In this document: positions 1 through 10,200 of the stretch, in pieces
Numbering within the stretch: position 1 is the stretch's first letter
Layout of the letters: the number at the start of each line of letters is the position of its first letter
Virus record (IMG/VR): IMGVR_UViG_2541047928_000015
Source: a virus
Taxonomy: Duplodnaviria; Heunggongvirae; Uroviricota; Caudoviricetes
Length of the DNA: 14,205 bases
Reading direction: 5' to 3' (one strand)
Notes under the pieces: generated by a model
What the model was told of the DNA's origin: nothing
Database searches by the model: none
Seen by the model: only the letters and a program-made list of their open reading frames with translations
Program-made: the position numbers and the translations under genes

Positions 1-462
1 ATGACGGCGAAAACAGCACCGAAAGTCACGCTGTGGGAGTTCTTCCAGCAGTTAGGCAAAACCTTCATGTTACCCGTGGCATTATTGTCGTTCTGCGGCA
101 TTATGCTCGGCATTGGTAGTTCTCTTAGCAGCCATGATGTCATCACCCTGATCCCGGTCCTGGGCAACCCCGTGTTGCAGGCTATCTTTACCTGGATGAG
201 TAAGATTGGCTCGTTTGCTTTTAGTTTCCTGCCAGTCATGTTCTGTATCGCCATCCCGCTGGGTCTGGCACGCGAAAACAAAGGCGTAGCGGCATTCGCT
301 GGCTTCGTCGGTTATGCGGTAATGAACCTCGCGGTAAACTTCTGGTTGACCAATAAAGGCATTCTGCCAACCACGGACGCCGCAGTTCTGAAAGCCAATA
401 ATTCACAGGTGTTTTTTCCCATCCTGTGGTTTCCTTGGCGTTTTCTAGGTTTTTTCAGATAG
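1..462 (+). pseudogene. malX: PTS system EIICB component, glucose/maltose family (MalX-like), N-terminal ~135 codons only; frame then runs into unrelated sequence and stops after 18 more codons
   Basis: Translation MTAKTAPKVTLWEFFQQLGKTFMLPVALLSFCGIMLGIGSS... reads as the N-terminal membrane domain of a PTS EIIC protein and matches my recollection of E. coli MalX. An EIIC domain needs ~350 aa, so a 153-aa product is truncated. The C-terminal 18 residues (SQVFFPILWFPWRFLGFFR) are not transporter-like. Sequence character changes at about nt 406. Confidence 0.55.
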
Positions 463-810
463 TTGCATTTTTTAAAAAGCATCCTAAGTTCGATCTCAGT
501 GTCTATCTGGGGCCTATTTCTGTCCCATATATGCCCCAAAAAAACTCCTCAACAGATAAGTAGTTTTTTCATGGAGTTACGCGTAAAATCAATAACGGCT
601 GGAAATCATTCAATACTCGCACTATCGAAAAATTTACCAGCCAACCGCAGCACGTTCTTGCATAAGGCGTGTCTGCGGTTTTTCAACTATTCAGATACAT
701 CACTCCCATCACATTCATTCCTCCGCATCAAAGGCATATAGGCTATATCACCTTGATATTTTTCTTCTTCAGATAAAAACTGTTATCTATGTATACTTTT
801 AAACCCAATC

Positions 811-823
811 CGTGTAGAGTCTC
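811..823 (+). repeat. Direct repeat copy 1, CGTGTAGAGTCTC (extended imperfect match over ~21 bp, 801-823)
   Basis: Seen directly. Same 13-mer with one mismatch recurs at 1719-1731 in the same orientation; a gapped alignment of the extended 21-bp region gives about 17 of 21 matches. Confidence 0.4.
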
Positions 824-1002
824 TGCATAAGATAGTTTGCAGTTGCCACTTCAGCTTGCGCCATAAACCGCCTGATTTTTGCCGCCATCTGTTAGCATTC
901 CTGTATACCTGAAACGACAATGTTTATCTACGAACTTTAAGAACACCCAGGATAAAAATTGTCAACTATATCATATATAACACATTACTAATTCGAGGCT
1001 AT

Positions 1003-1116
1003 ATGAACAGCATACTGATAATCACTTCGCTCCTTATCATATTCAGCATTTTTAGTCATGCTCTAATAAAATTAGGGATTGGCATATCCAATAACCCAGA
1101 CAAAACCGATGTATAA
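1003..1116 (+). CDS. Hypothetical 37-aa hydrophobic peptide ([37 protein letters not shown]): one predicted TM helix plus polar C-tail
   Basis: ATG at 1003 preceded by GAGG (995-998); TAA at 1114-1116. Below the ORF-track size cut-off, so found by hand. AT-rich DNA yields Ile/Leu/Phe-rich ORFs by chance, hence low confidence. Confidence 0.3.
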
Positions 1117-1184
1117 GTCAACATATCCTGAATCAGACATACAATATCGCAATGAAAATCAATAATATTTTAAGGAATATATTC

Positions 1185-1418
1185 ATGAAATCAAAAGACA
1201 CCCTAAAGTGGTTCCCTGCGCAGCTTCCTGAAGTCAGAATTATCCTAGGGGATGCTGTAGTGGAAGTAGCAAAACAGGGAAGACCTATCAATACCAGAAC
1301 ATTGCTTGATTACATTGAAGGAAACATAAAGAAAAAATCATGGCTGGATAACAAAGAATTATTACAAACAGCGATATCAGTTCTTAAAGACAACCAAAAT
1401 TTAAATGGTAAAATGTAA
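1185..1418 (+). CDS. Hypothetical small protein, 77 aa from the SD-preceded ATG (88 aa if upstream ATG at 1152 is used)
   Basis: ORF track 1152..1418. The internal ATG at 1185 is preceded by AAGGAA at an 8-nt spacing, whereas the 1152 ATG has no SD. Very AT-rich coding sequence. I recognise no family. Confidence 0.45.
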   Translation: MKSKDTLKWFPAQLPEVRIILGDAVVEVAKQGRPINTRTLLDYIEGNIKKKSWLDNKELLQTAISVLKDNQNLNGKM

Positions 1419-1583
1419 TATAATAAACTTACTTTTTTATCATTTTTCCACTTTAACAACATTTTGCTCCACTTTTCCACGACCAAACAACTTGAAATCT
1501 GGTTAAAATAACACGCAACACTATTCTTCTTCCTTGAGTCCGCCCGGAACTCGAAAAACAAACCGAGTTAAAGCCATTTTTCA

Positions 1584-1597
1584 CAAAATCGATTTTG
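1584..1597. promoter_or_regulatory. 14-bp perfect palindrome CAAAATCGATTTTG, followed by a second dyad TTTTGG-GTCTCAC-CCAAAA (1594-1611); candidate operator or recombinase-binding site
   Basis: Seen directly in the 317-bp non-coding region upstream of the recombinase gene. The loop heptamer GTCTCAC recurs at 1724-1730 inside the direct-repeat copy 2. Confidence 0.3.
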
Positions 1598-1718
1598 GGT
1601 CTCACCAAAATTACGGGGTTGCATACGCATTCGTTTATTTTCGAACGTGTACATACAAACATGCACAAAAATAATCAAAATTATTTTCTGAGATGCATTA
1701 TGATATGAACACCAATTT

Positions 1719-1731
1719 CGTATAGAGTCTC
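1719..1731 (+). repeat. Direct repeat copy 2, CGTATAGAGTCTC, ending 3 nt before the recombinase start codon
   Basis: Seen directly; pairs with 811-823. Confidence 0.4.
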
Positions 1732-1734
1732 ACT

Positions 1735-2325
1735 ATGTCTCGAATTTTTGCTTACTGTCGGATATCAACGCTGGATCAGACCACCGAAAATCAACGCCGG
1801 GAAATCGAAAGTGCAGGTTTTAACATCAAATCTCAGCAAATAATCGAAGAACACATTAGCGGCTCAGCAGCAACCAGTGAGCGTCCTGGTTTTAACCGGT
1901 TGCTTGCTCGCCTGAAATGTGGTGATCAATTGATTGTGACAAAACTGGATCGCCTTGGTTGTAATGCAATGGATATCAGGAAAACAGTGGAACAACTGAC
2001 CGAAACAGGTATCAGAGTGCATTGCTTAGCATTGGGGGGCATTGACCTGACCAGTCCAACAGGAAAAATGATGATGCAAGTAATTTCAGCAGTCGCTGAA
2101 TTTGAACGAGACCTTTTACTTGAACGCACTCATTCCGGGATAGTAAGAGCCCGCGGCGCAGGGAAACGTTTTGGTCGACCACCTGTGTTAAATGAAGAAC
2201 AGAAACAGGTGGTATTCGAACGAATTAAGTCAGGTGTAAGTATAAGTGCCATTGCCCGGGAATTCAAAACCTCGCGGCAAACCATTTTAAGAGCCAAAGC
2301 AAAACTTCAGACACCTGACATATAA
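1735..2325 (+). CDS. Serine recombinase of the resolvase/invertase family (Pin/Hin/Gin-like), 196 aa
   Basis: N-terminal catalytic motif YCRISTLDQ (Ser10), DRLG motif, E..ER acidic patch, GRPP linker and C-terminal helix-turn-helix. Position beside the tail fibre genes is the classic Pin location in e14/Rac-type prophages. Only about one-third identity to Gin/PinE by eye, so invertase versus resolvase is unresolved. Confidence 0.9.
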
Positions 2326-2422
2326 AAAATAATCTCGGTGTGAGATGCTTTACGTCTTCCAAGCCCCCTTCCTTGCCGTAAATGGAAAGATACATCTAAT
2401 TATAGAATTTATATGTTTTACC

Positions 2423-2542
2423 CTACGGCAGTGCTGGCCATTCAATATCCTGTGCAGTTGACGTATCAACACGGTTCAGCAATACCCGATACTTTTTCCA
2501 TGCTTCCAGCAACGAGATTTCTTCCTCCGTTGCATATACAGC
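2423..2542 (-). pseudogene. tfa: Fossil 3-prime end of tail fibre assembly gene tfa (last 39 codons, no start codon)
   Basis: Minus-strand translation [39 protein letters not shown]-stop is nearly identical to the lambda Tfa C-terminus as I recall it (...[34 protein letters not shown]...). It is preceded in frame by TGA at 2543-2545, and upstream sequence shows no Tfa similarity in any frame I read. Confidence 0.7.
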
Positions 2543-2552
2543 TCACCTTTTT

Positions 2553-2876
2553 TCACCCACGATTAACCAACAGCCAGACCAGCAGACACGCCACCACCGG
2601 CACAGCAAAATCTATCAGGCTTGCCACATCCCAAACACGCGGATCAAAACCGCCCCACCACGGCATGTTAATCCGCTTGCAATGCCCGAACATTTCAATC
2701 CAGCGATATTCTGCCTGGGTGTGTTCCCGCGCAATGAAGAATGTACAACCGGCTATCGCCCCGTAAGCCCAGTTTCCGGTAAAAAGACCAACCAGTACCT
2801 GCGCAGCCACAGCACAAAGCGCATGAAGAAAAGGTGTTATATCCATTTTCATCCTACCCAATAAAACGGGGCGCAT
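2553..2876 (-). CDS. Hypothetical small membrane protein, 107 aa, 2-3 predicted TM segments
   Basis: ORF track. Hydrophobic stretches ITPFLHALCAVAAQVLVGLFTG / AYGAIAGCTFFIA / VASLIDFAVPVVACLLVWLLV. Starts 12 nt downstream of the orf346 stop, so probably co-transcribed. No family recognised. Confidence 0.5.
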   Translation of the reverse strand: MRPVLLGRMKMDITPFLHALCAVAAQVLVGLFTGNWAYGAIAGCTFFIAREHTQAEYRWIEMFGHCKRINMPWWGGFDPRVWDVASLIDFAVPVVACLLVWLLVNRG

Positions 2877-2887
2877 AGCCCTTAATA

Positions 2888-3928
2888 TTATTTAGACGCA
2901 AGCGTCGCCTCAATTGCAGATAATCTTTGCCTTAATTCTGCGTTTTCTTCTTCCAGTACTGTTATTCTGTCGTCTGACTCTCTGGCTACCTGAACAAGCA
3001 AGCCAGTAACACCAGAATAATCTACTGTGTAATAACGTTCACCTTCTTCACCTTCCGATCCGCTTGCACCGTCCTGATATTTCATTGCGGAACCGACAAC
3101 TTCTGGGATTGCTTCCAGAGCTTCCTGTGCAATGACACCTGCATAGGGCATACCGTTTTCTTTAAGCGTGTATGTATAGCCGTTCATTTTACGGATGCGG
3201 TCGGTTGCATTATCGATCACCTGAATGTTGTCTTTCAGATCCCGGTCGGAATGCTGGTTAAATGCGGTGGCATGACATGCACCATTAACGCTTAACATAT
3301 AGGTGTTATCGGTATTTTTCTGCGCATAGAACATATACGCGCCACCATCAGCACCAACTTCATATACAACCGGACGGGTAGAGTTACCCCACAAACTAGT
3401 AGTAGCGCCAGAATGAGCGGTCCCCTGTGTGTTTAATGTCATGGTTGACCCATGATTGGCATATTTGATTTGTAATGTGTCTGTGCAGTCAAACTTAATA
3501 AGCGCGTTACTTCCCCGCACACCATACGACATGAGACAGTTCCCCATCTTAAGGTAACCATCACTGCCTGGAAAAATTAATGTTCCGCCGTAAAGATCGC
3601 TAAAATCCCAAAAGATACCTTTTGTTCCATTGTGTGTGACAATCCTTGTCATTGTATCTTTTGTACCGTCAATATTTTTTCTGGTGTACATCTCACTATA
3701 AGCGTTTTCGGTTTCTCCTGTCTTATTTGACAAGTGAATCTTACCGCTAAATATAGTTCCAGTGGTCGGCAATGCCTTTTGATCATAGATTACATTGCAA
3801 TAACTATTCCATGTTGTTTTATTGTCTACATATGATTTTGTTGCATAGCTTCCTTGATCAGTTTTTAGTTTACTAACATCGGATTTTAGCGTTTTGATGT
3901 CATCAGGAATTACTGTTTTTGTAACCAT
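2888..3928 (-). CDS. Tail fibre / tail spike-like protein with C-terminal intramolecular chaperone auto-processing domain (peptidase S74-like), 346 aa
   Basis: C-terminal ~120 aa (SDRDLKDNIQVIDNATDRIRKMNGYTYTLKENG ... ITVLEEENAELRQRLSAIEATLASK) has the hallmark S-D-x-x-L-K-x-N-I start and terminal coiled coil of the self-cleaving chaperone domain found in phage endosialidases and the T5 L-shaped fibre. GGAG SD 9 nt upstream of the ATG, lying inside the end of orf89. Lower GC than the J gene. Confidence 0.8.
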   Translation of the reverse strand: MVTKTVIPDDIKTLKSDVSKLKTDQGSYATKSYVDNKTTWNSYCNVIYDQKALPTTGTIFSGKIHLSNKTGETENAYSEMYTRKNIDGTKDTMTRIVTHNGTKGIFWDFSDLYGGTLIFPGSDGYLKMGNCLMSYGVRGSNALIKFDCTDTLQIKYANHGSTMTLNTQGTAHSGATTSLWGNSTRPVVYEVGADGGAYMFYAQKNTDNTYMLSVNGACHATAFNQHSDRDLKDNIQVIDNATDRIRKMNGYTYTLKENGMPYAGVIAQEALEAIPEVVGSAMKYQDGASGSEGEEGERYYTVDYSGVTGLLVQVARESDDRITVLEEENAELRQRLSAIEATLASK

Positions 3929-3940
3929 TGTCTTACTCCA

Positions 3941-4210
3941 TTAAGCCCATGTCCTTACATGCTGATCTGTCGTAATGAAAGGCATTAAAGAAGATATGTT
4001 TTTACTGCTATCAACAATCCTCATGTTTACGAAAAAACCACCGCGATCAATGCCTGTACATCTTTCGTTTTCTGGCTCCTCGTAATCGATAATGCAGCCA
4101 ATAACATCAACAAGAACCCCGTTTTCTTCTTCAAGACTGAACAGGCCACTGTCATATACAATTGCGTTAAACTGTTCTCTGTTATCGAATCGTAATGTTA
4201 TATCTCGCAT
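3941..4210 (-). CDS. Hypothetical acidic 89-aa protein, translationally coupled to the side tail fibre gene (possible fibre adaptor or assembly factor)
   Basis: ATG overlaps the stf stop (TAATG on the minus strand at 4212-4208). No family recognised. Confidence 0.6.
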   Translation of the reverse strand: MRDITLRFDNREQFNAIVYDSGLFSLEEENGVLVDVIGCIIDYEEPENERCTGIDRGGFFVNMRIVDSSKNISSLMPFITTDQHVRTWA

Positions 4211-6567
4211 TATACGTATTCCTTAAGCTGCGTATCTGACAATGCTCTGTTCCAGAAACGGAGGTTTTTTATATGACCATTAAGGTGTCGTAATCCTGTC
4301 GTCGTTTGCCCCCCGATACGAATCACGGCTGCTTCACGAATATATTTCCATACTGTTTTTGTTTCAGCGCTTATATGCTTATTTGCAAATGAGCATGTCA
4401 TGCCGTCAGCCTTAACCCTGAATCCCATAACGAGATCCCTTACTCCGCATGATTCATATACACGTCGGTTAGCCCCGCCTATATCGCAATACGAATAACC
4501 GTCCTGACTGATAGTTCCAGAAGAACCAAACCCCATAATAAATGGGCCTCCGGACTGGTGATTTTCTGAATCAATGACACGCGGTGCAGCATTATGAGAA
4601 ATAAACCAGTTTTTATGGACTTCCACCATGAACGTAAAAGGCATGGTATACATATTTTTCATCAGCGGAAATTTACATAAATCTGATGCACGAGTCGCTG
4701 GCTCTGTTGTCGTTATGATGAAGGAAGTTGCACAAGCACCATACTCGAATTGCGGGGTGGTTACTTCTATCCAGTCACCTGTTGCAAAAGCTCCCACAGC
4801 TCTGTCGGCTGCAATTTGCAGCTGCGTACCAACCATTCCCCATTCTGGCAGACATTTCAGTGTTGCCTGAAAATATATCCATCCACTACCAGGGTCGATT
4901 TCAAAGTTTGCTGTTAATAGCTGGGCATTGCCACCAGTAATTTGTAGTTCATGGGTCTGTAATGACAAATAGGCGTCGCAAAGGAAGGTGTATCCTTCCG
5001 AGTTATACCGTTCAAAACGGATACGTGCGCGAACATTGAGATCACTTCTTACCCTGAACGACGCGGTAACATACGGACCTTTACTGTACTGATCATCGCC
5101 AGTCACATCTATGCCTTTGTTACCAGCAACTGTGCATATATTTCTCCCTGTTGTCGTTCCTGCTATATCGCTTCCTACCGTGAAACGTCCATATTTAAAC
5201 TCAAATTCATCTGTTGATGATGTTACAGATATACCACCGCTTTTATTCCACGCATCAGGATTAAAACTATTTACGAACATGTTTGTTCGCTGATTCTCTA
5301 TCAGCAAACCATATTTTTCAAAACGAGGAACGTTATTACCTGCCACGGTAATATGCCCGGACTTATCAATATACGTTGCAGATGAAGCCCGGCTAAATTG
5401 GCATATGCCATTAACTGGCACAGTGATTTCATCGCTGCCGATGGTTATTGTTTTATACCCCGGCGCATACCCTGTTATCGCTTCCAGAGAATCATTCAAG
5501 GGTAGCCAGATATCAGGAAGCGGAGGGACAGAAGCAGGATCAGCGGCATCTTCTGCAATCCGGGCTGCATTCTCTGCTCTTGTTGCGGCTGACGTTGCTT
5601 CTGTCTCGCTGGCTGCTGCTTTTGTTTCGCTCGCCTTTGCGTTAGTTTCACTGGTTTTTGCAGCTTTTTGGCTATTAGCTGCCGCTGTTGCAGAACCAGC
5701 TGCAGCACTCTCGCTTTCGGCTGCTGCATCCTGACTGCTTTTCGCCGCAGTTTCGCTGGCTTTGGCATTCGTTTCGCTGGTCTTCGCTGCCGTCTGGCTG
5801 GACTTTGCGTTAGTTTCACTCGTCTTCGCAGCTTTCTGGCTGTTAGCCGCAGCAGTTGCTGATCCAGCTGCTGAAGTCGCAGAACCGGCTGCCGCGCTCT
5901 CGCTTTGGGCTGCTGCAACCTGGCTGTTTTTTGCCGCAGTTTCACTGGCTTTGGCATTCGTTTCGCTGGTCTTCGCTGCCGTCTGGCTGGACTTTGCGTT
6001 GGTTTCGCTCGTCTTTGCGGCTGTCTCGCTGTTTTTCGCGTTGGTTTCTGATTTTTTGGCTGCTGTCGCGGAGTTTGCCGATGCAGTCTGCGAGGACGCT
6101 GCCGCCTGTGCGCTGTTAGCTGCATTCGTTTCTGAGGTTTTCGCCGCGTTCTTCGATGATGCCGCTGCAGTTTCGGATTTCTTTGCCACCGCTGCGCTCT
6201 GAGAGGCGGCTTCGGCGTTGCGTGCCGCTTCTTCCACCATTGCCTCAAAACGACGCAATGCCTCCGGCATGACATCATCTTCCGTCATGGCACCGAGAAA
6301 ATCATTCAGCGTACCTGGTCTGGAACCTTCATAGACGGTAATGATCCCGGCATGTGAAGGCGGAAAACCTTCAACCAGCAGGATAACGCTATACTGGCCA
6401 TACTCAACGTCCATGCTGTAACGCCCGGCTTCATCCGGATTTTCAGAGGCCACCGTGTTCACCAGTACAGTGGTGCTGTTACGCTTTGCCTTCAGTTGAA
6501 TAGTGCAGTTCTGTATTGGTTTTCCCGCACCATCTTTCAGCACACCTGAGATTTTTACTGCTGCCAT
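4210..6567 (-). CDS. stf: Side tail fibre protein: lambda Stf-like N-terminal anchor and Ala/Ser/Thr/Lys repeat shaft, non-lambda distal region ending in a ConA/LamG-like lectin domain
   Basis: N-terminus MAAVKISGVLKDGAGKPIQNCTIQLKAKRNSTTVLVNTVASENPDEAGRYSMDVEYGQYSVIL is near-identical to lambda Stf as I recall it. C-terminus ...RIGGQTTTGLRHLNGHIKNLRFWNRALSDTQLKEY matches the LamG-type signature (G-x-I-x-x-hRhWNRALS-x-x-Q/E-h). Start placed at ATG 6567 (GGAG 5 nt upstream) rather than the track's GTG at 6573, which lies inside that SD. Confidence 0.9.
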   Translation of the reverse strand: MAAVKISGVLKDGAGKPIQNCTIQLKAKRNSTTVLVNTVASENPDEAGRYSMDVEYGQYSVILLVEGFPPSHAGIITVYEGSRPGTLNDFLGAMTEDDVMPEALRRFEAMVEEAARNAEAASQSAAVAKKSETAAASSKNAAKTSETNAANSAQAAASSQTASANSATAAKKSETNAKNSETAAKTSETNAKSSQTAAKTSETNAKASETAAKNSQVAAAQSESAAAGSATSAAGSATAAANSQKAAKTSETNAKSSQTAAKTSETNAKASETAAKSSQDAAAESESAAAGSATAAANSQKAAKTSETNAKASETKAAASETEATSAATRAENAARIAEDAADPASVPPLPDIWLPLNDSLEAITGYAPGYKTITIGSDEITVPVNGICQFSRASSATYIDKSGHITVAGNNVPRFEKYGLLIENQRTNMFVNSFNPDAWNKSGGISVTSSTDEFEFKYGRFTVGSDIAGTTTGRNICTVAGNKGIDVTGDDQYSKGPYVTASFRVRSDLNVRARIRFERYNSEGYTFLCDAYLSLQTHELQITGGNAQLLTANFEIDPGSGWIYFQATLKCLPEWGMVGTQLQIAADRAVGAFATGDWIEVTTPQFEYGACATSFIITTTEPATRASDLCKFPLMKNMYTMPFTFMVEVHKNWFISHNAAPRVIDSENHQSGGPFIMGFGSSGTISQDGYSYCDIGGANRRVYESCGVRDLVMGFRVKADGMTCSFANKHISAETKTVWKYIREAAVIRIGGQTTTGLRHLNGHIKNLRFWNRALSDTQLKEYV
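5580..6125. repeat. Imperfect tandem DNA repeats (three ~120-190-bp units on a 21-bp / 7-codon periodicity) inside the stf shaft-coding region
   Basis: Seen directly: 5747-5823 is almost identical to 5936-6011, and 5630-5750 closely resembles 5800-5936. Protein shows repeating KTSETNA/KSSQTAA/KASETAA heptads. Confidence 0.7.
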
Positions 6568-6578
6568 ATCCACTCCAC

Positions 6579-6604
6579 AAAAAAGCCCGCCTGAACCGGC
6601 GGGC
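6579..6604 (-). terminator. Rho-independent terminator downstream of lom (minus strand)
   Basis: Perfect 7-bp GC-rich stem (6585-6591 / 6598-6604), 6-nt loop, followed on the minus strand by a run of six U (6584-6579). Sits between the lom stop and the stf SD. Confidence 0.7.
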
Positions 6605-6631
6605 TGTCATAACACTGTGTTACCTGGCTAA

Positions 6632-7231
6632 TCAGAATTTATAACCGACACCCACGATGAAACCGTCAGTGCGCCAGTCGCCACTGCCGGAGCCTTCATA
6701 AGCAATATCAATGGCCACGGATTCGGTCGGGTTAAACTGCACGCCAGCTCCCCACGCCAGAGACGTGTTGCTGTGGCGATCGTCATCACTTCCGGTCAGC
6801 ACATCGTGCGTTTTCCCCTTGTTGTCAGTTACGCGGAGATAATCCCCGGAGAACGTCGAAACACGGCTGTAAGCCACACCTGCCATCGCATAAGCACTGA
6901 ACCATTCATTCACGCGTACAGACGGCCCCGCCATCATGCTGAACCAGCGGTTACGCACTGAATCTTCATGCCAGCGGGTATCGCTGTAATGCGTTTTTTG
7001 CTCATCTTTGGCATTGGCATAACTGAATGACGTCACCAGCCCCAGCGTGTCCGTAAATTCATAACGGTATTTCACGTTAATGCCCTTCAGGTCATCGTTG
7101 CCGGGCATATCAGTATGGGTCTGAAGATACCCGGCGCTTAGTGTGGACTGATGCTCTGCTGCGCTCGCTGGCGTACCAGCGGCGACCAGCCAGACTACTG
7201 TGGACAGAATAACAGCACATAATTTACGCAT
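6632..7231 (-). CDS. lom: Lom outer membrane protein (Ail/Lom/PagC beta-barrel family), signal peptide present
   Basis: 199 aa. C-terminal IAYEGSGSGDWRTDGFIVGVGYKF and internal motifs (KGINVKYRYE, SAYAMAGVA) match lambda Lom. Same position as in lambda, between J and stf. Confidence 0.95.
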   Translation of the reverse strand: MRKLCAVILSTVVWLVAAGTPASAAEHQSTLSAGYLQTHTDMPGNDDLKGINVKYRYEFTDTLGLVTSFSYANAKDEQKTHYSDTRWHEDSVRNRWFSMMAGPSVRVNEWFSAYAMAGVAYSRVSTFSGDYLRVTDNKGKTHDVLTGSDDDRHSNTSLAWGAGVQFNPTESVAIDIAYEGSGSGDWRTDGFIVGVGYKF

Positions 7232-7252
7232 AATTACCTCTCGCTTTTCTGC

Positions 7253-7278
7253 AAAAAAAAGGCACCATTTCTGGTGCC
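7253..7278 (-). terminator. Rho-independent terminator between J and lom (minus strand)
   Basis: Stem GGCACCA (7272-7278 / 7261-7267) with a 4-nt loop, followed on the minus strand by eight U (7260-7253). Confidence 0.7.
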
Positions 7279-7297
7279 CGTATATGGGTTATAAAAT

Positions 7298-10200
7298 TCA
7301 GCTGATACTGATGCCTGCGGTGGCTTTCTTCATCACCACAACCAGCAAATCGCTGATACTTGCTGTGGGATACCAGTCATTTACCAGCCATGCTGACACC
7401 GAAAACTCCAGCGTCATGTGACCGTGACCGGCAGGCATATCAATAACGCCACTGTAAATCAGCGTATTATCCAGCGCGGTACGGTTATAAATTTCAGCAC
7501 CGTTTTTCCGCACTATCAGACGGCATGAGGAGTAAATATCAGTATGCTCTCTCTCATGTTTAGCGCCGCTGAATGCCACCGCCGGAATAACAATCTGCCG
7601 GTCAAACGGCTGATCGTCATAAACCCTGACGGTAATGGTCCCTGATGGCCACCGTTCCGGTGCACGGGAGTCCCGGGGGAAAGCTTTGCCCACTGTTTTA
7701 ACGAGATCGCCTTCAATCTGGTTCGCGGACAGTTTTCCCAGAACCCGACAGTTCTCGTTAATCGTGACGTTGTTGAGCGTCCCGGAGTTCGCATTCACGT
7801 TACCGCTGATATCGGCATTTTTCGCCGTCAGCCGCCCATCCGGTGTCAGGGAAAATGCCGGTGGATTTCCACCACTGGTAATGGTGGGGGCCGTCAGGCG
7901 TTTCAGGAACACGTCGTTCATGAATATCTGATTGCCCTGCGCCACAAACATCGGCGTTTCATTCCCGTTTGCCGGGTCAATAAACGCGATACGGTTAGCG
8001 GCAACCAGAAACTGGCTCAGTTTGCCTTCCTCCGTGTCCTCCATACTGAGGCCAATACCCGCGACATAATGTTTGCCGTCTTTGGTCTGCTCAATTTTGA
8101 CAGCCCACATGGCATTCCATTTATCGTTGGCATCCTTCCACTCTTTCGAAAACTCATCCAGTCTGCTGGCGTTATCCTCCGTCAGATCGACTTTTTCCAG
8201 CAGCTCCTTGCCGAGATGGGATTCGGTTATCTTGCCTTTGAAAAAATCCAGGTAACCTTCCGCATCATCGCTCGCCCGACCGACGGACTCCACGAATGCC
8301 GATTTGCCAACGGTGTTCACACTGCGGATATAAAAGTAATAATCATGGCCCGGTTTGATATTGATACTGGCGGCTATCCAGTACAGCCCCGTGCCAAGGT
8401 AGCGGGCTGTGGTTTCAACCTGCCTGATATCGGTAATCCGCGTTTCCGAGAACCAGAACTCAAACTGTACCGTCGGATCATAAACCGCAAGATGCGGCGT
8501 GGCGGTGATCTGAAAATAGCCCGGCGTCAGCTCAATCCTCGACGGTGCTGCCGGTGCGGCAATCCGGAACGATACCGACGCCGGATCGCCCTGCTGCCCC
8601 CACGCATTTACCGCCCGGACTGTCAGCCTGTAGTTCCCCAGCGCCAGCTGCGTGAAGCGGTATGTGGTTTCCGCCGTCCGGGCCGTGCTGACCAGCCGCT
8701 CACTGCCGTCATCCGCTGCCACGGTCAGGCGAAGCATAAAGCTCACCCCCTTCACCACCTTCGGCGTATCCCAGCGTGCCAGCACCTGATACTCCCCGCT
8801 GTCTGCGGTGACTTCGGCAGTCAGGTGCTGCACCGCTGGCGGCGTGACACCATTCACCGTGCCGCTCTGGTCGCCGTCAAAGTGCGCCCCGTTATCCACG
8901 ATGGCTTCTTTTTCCGGTACATGCTGCACGGCGGTGATGGCATACGTGCCGTCGTCGTTCTCACGGATACTCACGCAGCGGAACAGGCGCTGGCGCAGCG
9001 TCGGCAGCTTCAGCCCCCATACGCTGTATTCAGCAACGCCGTCAGGAACACGGCTCACTTTCACCTTCACGCCGTCGGTGACGGACTGGACCTCCACGCT
9101 GACCGGATTGCCACTTCCGTCAACCAGGCTTATCAGCGTGGTACCGGAGGATGGCAGCGTGATTTCACGGTCGAGCGTCAGCGTCCGGGTCTGGCTGTTC
9201 ACAGCCAGCACGCGCCCGCCGATGCTGATCCCCGCATAGTCATCATCGCAGATTTCAATAACATCCCCCGGCACATGGCGAAGCCCTTCGGCACCCACGC
9301 TGAAATCCACGGTCTGCGTCTCCAGCAGCTCCGTTTTAATCAGCCACAGCCCGGCGCGGTGTGCCTGCCCCCGACTGGTACAGCCAAAGGCATCCATCTT
9401 CGTGACGTTACGACCGTAACGGGCAATGGCCTGCGTGTCCTCCACAAGCTCTGTCGCCGTCTCCCAGCCGTTATCCGGGTCAATCCAGTTCACCTCAACG
9501 GCATTATGACGGTCCTTCAGGGCGCTGAAGCTGTAGCGGAACGGCGCGCCATCATCCGGCATCACCACATTACTGCGGTTATAGGTCCACACCTTATCCG
9601 ATGGCCGGTCCTGCACGAACGTCAGCGTCTGCCCGTTCCATACCGGCATACAGCGCATCGCCGAGCAGAAATCACTGAGCACATCCCACGCCTTGCGCTG
9701 TGTGGTCAGGTACGCATTACAGGCGATGCGCGGCTCCGTGCCGCCAAAGCCGTCCGGCACCGACTGGTCGCAGTACTGGCCGATGACATACAGCGCCCAT
9801 TTATCCACATCCGCCGCACCAAGACGTTTCCCCATGCCGTAGCGCGGATGGGTCAGCATATCCCACAGACACCAGGCCATGTTGTTGCTGTATGCCGGTT
9901 TTAACGTTCCGTCCCAGATACCGCTGTATTGTCGCGTCTGCGGGTTATAGTTCGACGGCACCTGCAGAATGCGCCCGCGAAGATGATAATTACGACTCAC
10001 CTGCTGACTGCCGAACTGCTCCGAGTCCACCTGTACGCCAACCAGTGCCGTGTTCGGGTAGCACTGTTTCACATCGATGATTTCGGTGTATGACGACCAG
10101 AGCGTTTTGTTCTGCAGCTGGTCTGTGGTGCTGTCCGGCGTCATCCTGCGCATCCGGATATTAAACGGGCGCGGCGGCAGGTTATCCACCACCACCGAGG

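Follow-up and report, generated by a model that had tools for sequence, protein, structure and literature searches.

A probable relic of the fibre assembly gene tfa at a widespread mosaic joint in a lambda-like prophage

Introduction

Tail fibre assembly proteins of the TFA family combine a variable N-terminal fibre-binding domain with a conserved C-terminal helical trimerisation domain (PMC9608196), and this modular build makes the 3' block of tfa a shared sequence. When lambda was crossed with the Rac prophage, the right-hand crossover fell within a region of 95% homology in tfa in one third of the recombinants (PMC3945230). In lambda itself, tfa (orf-194) is intact, lies downstream of the side tail fibre gene stf, ends in …PAVPVME and is followed by ea47. 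The tfaQ and tfaR genes of the K-12 prophages Qin and Rac, like the tfa gene of mEp460_ev081, are intact genes, with products of 191 aa, convergent with a ynfT-ydfK-pin neighbourhood. Invertases of the pin family also accompany stf/tfa-type genes in the Mu G, P1 C and e14 P segments (Gin, Cin and Pin, respectively), and PinQ and PinR, acting in trans, invert the P segment of e14 and so block T2 adsorption (PMC12529663). Two further named genes of K-12, tfaX (b0563) and tfaD (b0561) of prophage DLP12, lie at mosaic joints; tfaX retains only a C-terminal part, and tfaD is a copy whose N-terminal part has been replaced.

The locus considered here lies in a 14,205-nucleotide stretch of a lambda-like prophage (IMG/VR record IMGVR_UViG_2541047928_000015), which we refer to as the window. 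It shares with tfaQ, tfaR and mEp460_ev081 tfa the last 112 nt of the gene, at 100% identity, and the same convergent ynfT-ydfK-pin neighbourhood, but residues 1-155 are gone and a 97-aa membrane-protein ORF and another set of fibre genes stand in their place. The lambda gene occupies the same position downstream of stf and its C-terminal block is closely related, whereas the neighbour beyond the fragment in the window is pin and not ea47. As in Mu, P1 and e14, a pin-family invertase sits beside stf/tfa-type genes; unlike those systems, the window contains no crossover sites, inverted duplicate fibre genes or invertible segment. The fragment resembles tfaX and tfaD in lying at a mosaic joint, but its breakpoint and upstream partner differ from theirs, and tfaX, unlike the fragment, has a start codon, an open frame and a CDS annotation. 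A preliminary description, made from the sequence of this DNA alone, had read the fragment as a fossil tfa 3' end that pinpoints where a new fibre cassette was spliced in. Here we compare the fossil and its flanks with related phages, prophages and complete E. coli genomes.

Results

The fossil occupies positions 2423-2545 on the minus strand. Full-length Tfa queries gave a single tblastn match in the window, in which codons 2533-2426 correspond to residues 156-191 of a 191-aa Tfa and are followed by the native stop codon (2425-2423). All 36 residues are identical to the Tfa of mEp460_ev081, which represents the Qin/Rac/mEp460_ev081 type, and 33 of the 36 to lambda Tfa. Correspondingly, the 3' ends of tfaR and tfaQ from K-12-type strains show 100% identity to the DNA at 2423-2534, and the fossil is 91% identical to lambda tfa. 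Searched against Pfam, the fossil peptide matched Caudo_TAP (PF02413), the family of lambda Tfa and Mu U, over profile positions 95-130 of 131 (E = 1.7e-16). We judge the similarity to Tfa to be far beyond chance.

Translation of the minus strand over 2400-2560 revealed 39 sense codons (2542-2426), the number that the preliminary description had called nearly identical to the lambda Tfa C-terminus, and bore out its statement that they have no start codon and directly follow an in-frame TGA (2545-2543). Only 36 of the 39 derive from Tfa, however. The codons for AVY and the TGA fall in a degenerate tfa-like stretch (2534-2545), which aligns with other tfa remnants as far as 2545 but does so across a 1-nt gap and is therefore out of frame. 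No further piece of Tfa (residues 1-155) was found anywhere in the window by tblastn at E values up to 10. An overlooked tfa-like ORF would have undermined the interpretation as a fossil, but no frame contains an intact tfa ORF, and at a minimum length of 40 aa the fossil is overlapped only by a 117-aa antisense ORF (2413-2766, plus strand) and a 40-aa ORF in another minus-strand frame. The former begins with ATG, runs antisense to both the fossil and the 97-aa gene, is absent from the annotations of MS20659 and Tritos, and is probably spurious.

A functional Caudo_TAP gene would have a complete ORF with a start codon and a fibre-binding N-terminal domain. Given the missing start codon, the in-frame TGA and the loss of residues 1-155, the fossil is a pseudogene fragment and not a functional member of the family. 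Nor does it lie immediately 3' of the side tail fibre gene, as ORFs of 89, 346 and 97/107 aa intervene. At the identical locus of E. coli MS20659, PGAP applies the label 'tail fiber assembly protein, incomplete, missing N-terminus'; the fossil is real but ordinary, and already annotated as a partial tfa pseudogene.

The genes upstream of the fossil all lie on the minus strand. J (10693-7298) and lom (7231-6632) are followed by stf (4210-6573), whose 787-aa product combines a lambda-type N-terminal domain (Pfam phage_tail_N, E = 6e-66), Ala/Ser/Thr-rich repeats and a non-lambda C-terminal half, with an NCBIfam GTA_spike_fiber domain at residues 424-629. Side fibres that are not of the lambda, Rac or Qin type imply that the fibre-determined part of the host range differs as well. 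Within the sequence encoding the Stf shaft (5603-6033, minus strand), internal direct repeats of the KTSETNAK type, rich in Ala, Ser and Thr, give ~79-82% self-similarity between 5603-5844 and 5771-6033.

Next to stf, and overlapping its stop codon with its own start, is an 89-aa ORF (3941-4210, minus strand) that occupies the place of tfa in lambda. It belongs to phrog_1361, of unknown function, and has no match in Pfam, in NCBIfam or among PDB sequences. A single-sequence AlphaFold2 model is all-beta, with low confidence (pLDDT 54). Its position suggests that it may be a candidate fibre assembly factor, perhaps of a different kind. The following gene (2888-3928, minus strand; phrog_4563) encodes a 346-aa tail-fibre protein that ends in a Peptidase_S74 intramolecular chaperone domain (PF13884, E = 6e-14); among PDB sequences, it matched only a long-tail-fibre tip, and weakly. 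Finally, a membrane-protein ORF spans 2553-2876 on the minus strand, encoding 107 aa from the first ATG or 97 aa as annotated by PGAP (2553-2846). We refer to it as the 97-aa ORF. It belongs to phrog_1443 (E = 1e-57); Pfam and NCBIfam gave no match and a PDB sequence search nothing useful.

The 97-aa ORF is the constant upstream partner of fossils that have the joint seen in the window. It occurs in phage 21 and in many lambdoid phages, where it follows the stf module, and in the P22-like phage JEP4, where it directly follows the tailspike gene. Members of phrog_1443 stand beside receptor-binding genes in all of these cases, and Aeromonas, Halomonas and Salmonella phages gave weak matches. From this position alone, one could guess at a function in superinfection exclusion or one related to the receptor.

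A related locus, L011, is 98% identical to the window over 1700-2847 and 3885-7300 but is without 2848-3884, which makes the 346-aa fibre gene a separate insertion/deletion module; in ev243 and phage 21, an ORF of ~90 aa is likewise followed directly by the 97-aa ORF. Tritos shares 398-3947 with the window at 94% identity, while its 89-aa ORF and stf tip differ. The fibre cassette is therefore itself composite.

On the other side of the fossil, 97 bp away and convergent with it, is a pin-type serine DNA invertase gene (1735-2325, plus strand; Pfam Resolvase and HTH_7). It is preceded by ydfK and belongs to a Qin/Rac-type backbone. The left end of the window (1-388, within an ORF at 1-462 on the plus strand) is the 5' part of malX, encoding the PTS maltose transporter IICB (positions 1-139 of NCBIfam NF007509). 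The prophage end abuts malX at ~388-390. Of 5,426 complete E. coli genomes, a single one has this joint; other strains carry this end of the prophage beside ydfJ, the Qin site.

Relatives with an intact stf-tfa arrangement at the same position, whose existence was a point to be checked, were readily found. In mEp460_ev081, stf (1023 aa), tfa (191 aa) and pin occupy this position, and identity between this phage and the window is 98.8% over 389-2534, rising to 100% over 2300-2534, an interval that takes in the tfa 3' end and the pin flank. The identity ends at 2535, and similarity resumes only in the stf 5' region (~6038-6215, 84%). With 2H10, Kati, PhiR34_1 and PhiR68_2, this match recurred and covered a gene annotated as tail fiber assembly, and in K-12 Qin the ynfT-ydfK-pinQ genes face an intact tfaQ. 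The fossil thus has the features of a mosaic joint as understood by De Paepe et al. (2014): the gene at this position is intact in relatives, the patch itself is of high identity (83-100% across nine loci) while the flanks on both sides vary, and recombinant haplotypes switch within it.

The breakpoint lies at the heptamer AAAAAGG (2546-2552, minus strand), between the stop codon of the 97-aa ORF and the start of tfa-like sequence, and has the appearance of an ancient illegitimate joint. In an alignment and haplotype table, sequence 5' of it recurs only at loci with this joint (class A), and sequence 3' of it is shared with tfa genes. On these comparisons, the fossil marks where a different fibre gene set joined the lambda-like prophage. 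The preliminary description is thus supported, by the outcome of both checks that it had proposed, with the qualifications that the cassette is composite and that the joint was inherited, phage 21 and ~1,060 E. coli genomes having the identical one.

To count this joint we used a 198-nt probe (2423-2620) at a minimum coverage of 80%, which detected it in 1,060 of 5,426 complete E. coli genomes, about a fifth; the tfa 3' block alone was present in 5,354 of them, with a median of four copies. Neither the E. coli genomes nor the IMG/VR loci counted below are phylogenetically independent. Base for base, the joint is the same in Tritos, HannyBb, PhiR63_1, 2G7b, ev243 and phage 21 (OL657228). In Tritos, HannyBb, 2G7b, ev243 and phage 21, the 97-aa gene is 92-94% identical to that of the window. 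Their fossil haplotypes and downstream flanks differ from those of the window, with sitABCD in phage 21 and a methyltransferase gene in 2G7b and ev243. In phage 21 (locus L129, 4794-4886), only ~69 nt of the fossil remain; both its ends have been cut, and on the 3' side the convergent sitABCD genes, for an iron/manganese transporter, cut it at what corresponds to 2477 in the window. Many E. coli genomes carry this doubly cut form, with matches that cover only 2477-2620. Our literature search found no paper on the fibre region of phage 21. Taken together, the sequences indicate that the joint was inherited and not made in this prophage, and that it is old and common.

Within the fossil, haplotypes change over. 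The window and MS20659 are of the Qin/ev081 type from 2533 downstream, and the other class A haplotypes in the table differ from the window at 2517, 2501 and 2483, which places the switch of the window within 2518-2533 (minus strand). These 16 nt, GCAACGGAGGAAGAAA, lie where joint-specific sequence gives way to a tfa 3' end that is 100% of the Qin/Rac/ev081 type, and we infer that they are the site of a homologous crossover. Tritos and loci L046, L011, L084 and L092 switch elsewhere, inside an invariant 20-mer (2463-2482). Downstream of the same joint, no fewer than three unrelated flanks occur, one of the pin type, one of the 2G7b/DLP12 type and one of a third type. These patterns indicate that the fossil has served as a homology patch for crossovers. 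The direction could also be the reverse, with the joint first formed in a Qin-type tfa and the other haplotypes arising as recombinants. The preliminary description had called the conserved tfa 3' end a linker for exchange of tail fibre modules, and here it agrees with the literature, both with the crossovers recovered in tfa in lambda x Rac crosses (PMC3945230) and with the conserved C-terminal module of the family (PMC9608196).

We surveyed truncation points more widely by scanning IMG/VR with the 20-mer of the conserved tfa 3' end, TTGCTGAACCGTGTTGATAC (2463-2482 in the window). The scan returned 123 occurrences in 119 loci, 75 of them in tfa ORFs of intact length and 46 in truncated or disrupted copies; 20 of the 46 have the joint of the window. 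Homology to tfa stops 32, 52, 77, 84, 108, ~201 or ~351 nt upstream of the 20-mer, giving at least seven truncation points, and the sequence beyond the stop differs among the seven classes, as judged from one representative inspected per stop. Different stops with different sequences beyond them point to several independent illegitimate events. Beyond the 52-nt stop, which defines the class of the window, lies the 97-aa ORF; beyond the 32-nt stop lies a truncated serine-recombinase fragment, beyond the 77-nt stop the terminal part of long Stf proteins that are similar at the C-terminus to the 346-aa S74 fibre (Ayreon, mEp460 and PhiR70_1), and beyond the 108-nt stop a sequence annotated in K-12 as tfaX, b0563. 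The C-terminal fragment tfaX thus matches the 108-nt class. Five of the seven breakpoints fall within 108 nt of the 20-mer (nominal binomial P ~0.006, with a post hoc threshold and loci that are not independent).

Several of these classes have features of their own. In the 32-nt class (L062, L109, L115, L128, L015 and L030), the tfa 3' end is fused in the same orientation to a pin/hin-like fragment, and the microhomology TCGT(T)GCTGG is common to both sequences at the joint. In the 77-nt class, the fossil is in the same frame as the long Stf (Ayreon, L006, 6001-6164; mEp460, L007; PhiR70_1, L008); in Ayreon, reading upstream from the fossil in this frame, the first stop codon met is the TGA that ends Stf, located 38 codons ahead of the 20-mer. 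Read-through of that TGA would append the C-terminal helices of Tfa, but the in-frame layout is probably a coincidence. In one further record (IMGVR_UViG_2703718837_000003, L025), stf and tfa are fused in frame (…NIALYCEACIMAFRMSEQ…) within an open frame of 1,421 codons that, by eye, begins in sequence resembling a large terminase; a deletion or rearrangement of the prophage, or an artefact of assembly, is the likely cause. The tfaD, ybcY (an annotated pseudogene) and tfaX genes of DLP12 in K-12 MG1655 (L132, 4535-6061) mirror the layout of 2G7b and ev243 (L004 and L005, 4770-6125), in which the fossil is followed by a methyltransferase gene on the opposite strand, a second tfa fragment and ompT. 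With the fossil on one side of it and the second fragment on the other, the methyltransferase gene lies between two tfa 3' ends in several elements.

Discussion

We favour an explanation in which the fossil is a non-coding relic, the last 36 codons and the stop of a Qin/Rac-type tfa, that was produced by an illegitimate joint, spread by homologous recombination and left behind by a tolerated gene loss. To this explanation as a whole we assign a probability of roughly 0.85. In an ancestral lambdoid phage, an illegitimate event would have fused the 3' end of a foreign module, with the 97-aa ORF as its last gene, to approximately nucleotide 465 of tfa, deleting the 5' four fifths of the gene together with its fibre-specific N-terminal domain. 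Homologous exchange within tfa alone could not have generated the truncated gene, so one illegitimate joining must have preceded the homologous spread. The occurrence of the 97-aa gene in JEP4 without any fossil marks that gene as foreign to tfa, which likewise argues for an illegitimate event; a donor carrying the module with its original downstream sequence was not found among the sequences we compared. As the comparison of haplotypes and flanks shows, the composite then spread among lambdoid phages and prophages by homologous recombination, with the conserved stf 5' region and J/lom as one arm and the ~120-nt fossil plus whatever lay downstream as the other. Loss of tfa would have been tolerated because the incoming fibres brought folding help of their own; the S74 chaperone domain on the 346-aa fibre and the 89-aa ORF in the tfa position suggest as much. 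Judging from domain content and gene order, the fossil would border a Tfa-independent fibre set on its downstream side, and today it would be a passive homology patch with no other role.

For an annotator, the fossil tells where the fibre module of the prophage ends, although alone it carries little weight: it is a routine, already known pseudogene at a well-known kind of mosaic joint and is common in E. coli. The survey provides a small illustration of how lambdoid phages swap receptor-binding modules, with several illegitimate joins in tfa and a 3' block reused for crossovers. Such reuse fits the published recombination between lambda and Rac (PMC3945230).

The joint might instead have been created in this prophage lineage, leaving the fossil as the scar of a single recent splice into a resident Qin/Rac-type stf-tfa. 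The 100% identity of the pin-side flank and fossil to the intact ev081/Qin type, up to 2534, is what such a scar would look like. The joint (2535-2562), however, also occurs with lambda-type fossil haplotypes and other flanks, as in 2G7b, ev243, phage 21 and ~1,060 E. coli genomes. Since an identical joint, base for base, is not what a de novo event would recreate, a local origin is largely refuted and unlikely. Somewhat less improbable, though still doubtful, is that the tfa 3' block, which encodes the C-terminal trimerisation helices, has been kept by selection as a docking site for Tfa-independent receptor-binding cassettes. Cassettes would then be swapped through the fossil by Red/RecA-type recombination, and the fossil would be a selected recombination linker and not a neutral scar. 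The crossovers that map inside fossils, those seen experimentally in tfa (PMC3945230) and the clustering of five of the seven truncation points in the last 108 nt before the 20-mer (at the nominal P value and post hoc threshold given above) all fit this idea, but neutral persistence of a 120-nt scar, together with a bias towards further deletion, explains the same data, and fossils decay and, in phage 21, have been cut again. The data are compatible with selective retention but do not call for it.

Our preferred account of a passive relic also has to be set against two readings in which the fragment or its neighbour plays an active part. One is that the fragment is itself functional, either as a small peptide comprising the Tfa trimerisation helices or as a cis-acting RNA, terminator or regulator of the fibre operon or pin. 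We consider this very unlikely. Its amino-acid sequence is indeed perfectly preserved relative to TfaQ/TfaR-type proteins, but recent recombination with an intact Qin/Rac-type copy explains this best, and the fragment has no start codon, an in-frame TGA upstream and a frame different from that of the 97-aa ORF. A search of the whole window detected no Rfam family, the predicted RNA fold of 2326-2560 is no more stable than that of shuffled sequence (z = -0.56), and a terminator and promoter scan found nothing in the fossil or in the spacer to pin and no terminator-like site in 2326-2560. The fossils of relatives have decayed as well, with TAG stops, a 1-nt deletion and the replacements W to R or L, L to R and KY to AC at residues that are invariant in the 75 intact copies. 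Counts of synonymous to non-synonymous differences, 84:58 in fossils against 92:48 in intact copies, are crude and drawn from copies that are not independent, and show no clear separation. The other reading makes the truncation a product of the adjacent Pin invertase, through site-specific inversion or deletion of the kind known from Mu G, P1 C and e14 P. The pin gene, 97 bp away, is intact and PinQ and PinR are active invertases (PMC12529663), but the same pin-tfa layout exists with an intact tfa in mEp460_ev081 and K-12 Qin. Moreover, the e14 crossover repeat, TTGGTTTGGGAGAAGG, has no match in the window at up to three mismatches, and no suitable long inverted repeats were found flanking the cassette. 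The core pattern of such crossover sites, AAACCNNGGTTT, has only one match in the window at up to one mismatch, which is the chance level. All fibre genes lie on the minus strand, and the window has neither an alternative fibre gene in the opposite orientation nor a second tfa or stf tip, so that of the components of an invertible segment the adjacent serine invertase is present and the paired inverted crossover sites and two opposed gene sets are absent. On the repeat, pattern and inverted-repeat results we rejected a Pin-mediated origin, which we regard as improbable in the extreme. The pin gene of the window is nonetheless intact and, by analogy with PinQ and PinR, might likewise act in trans in a host that carries e14.
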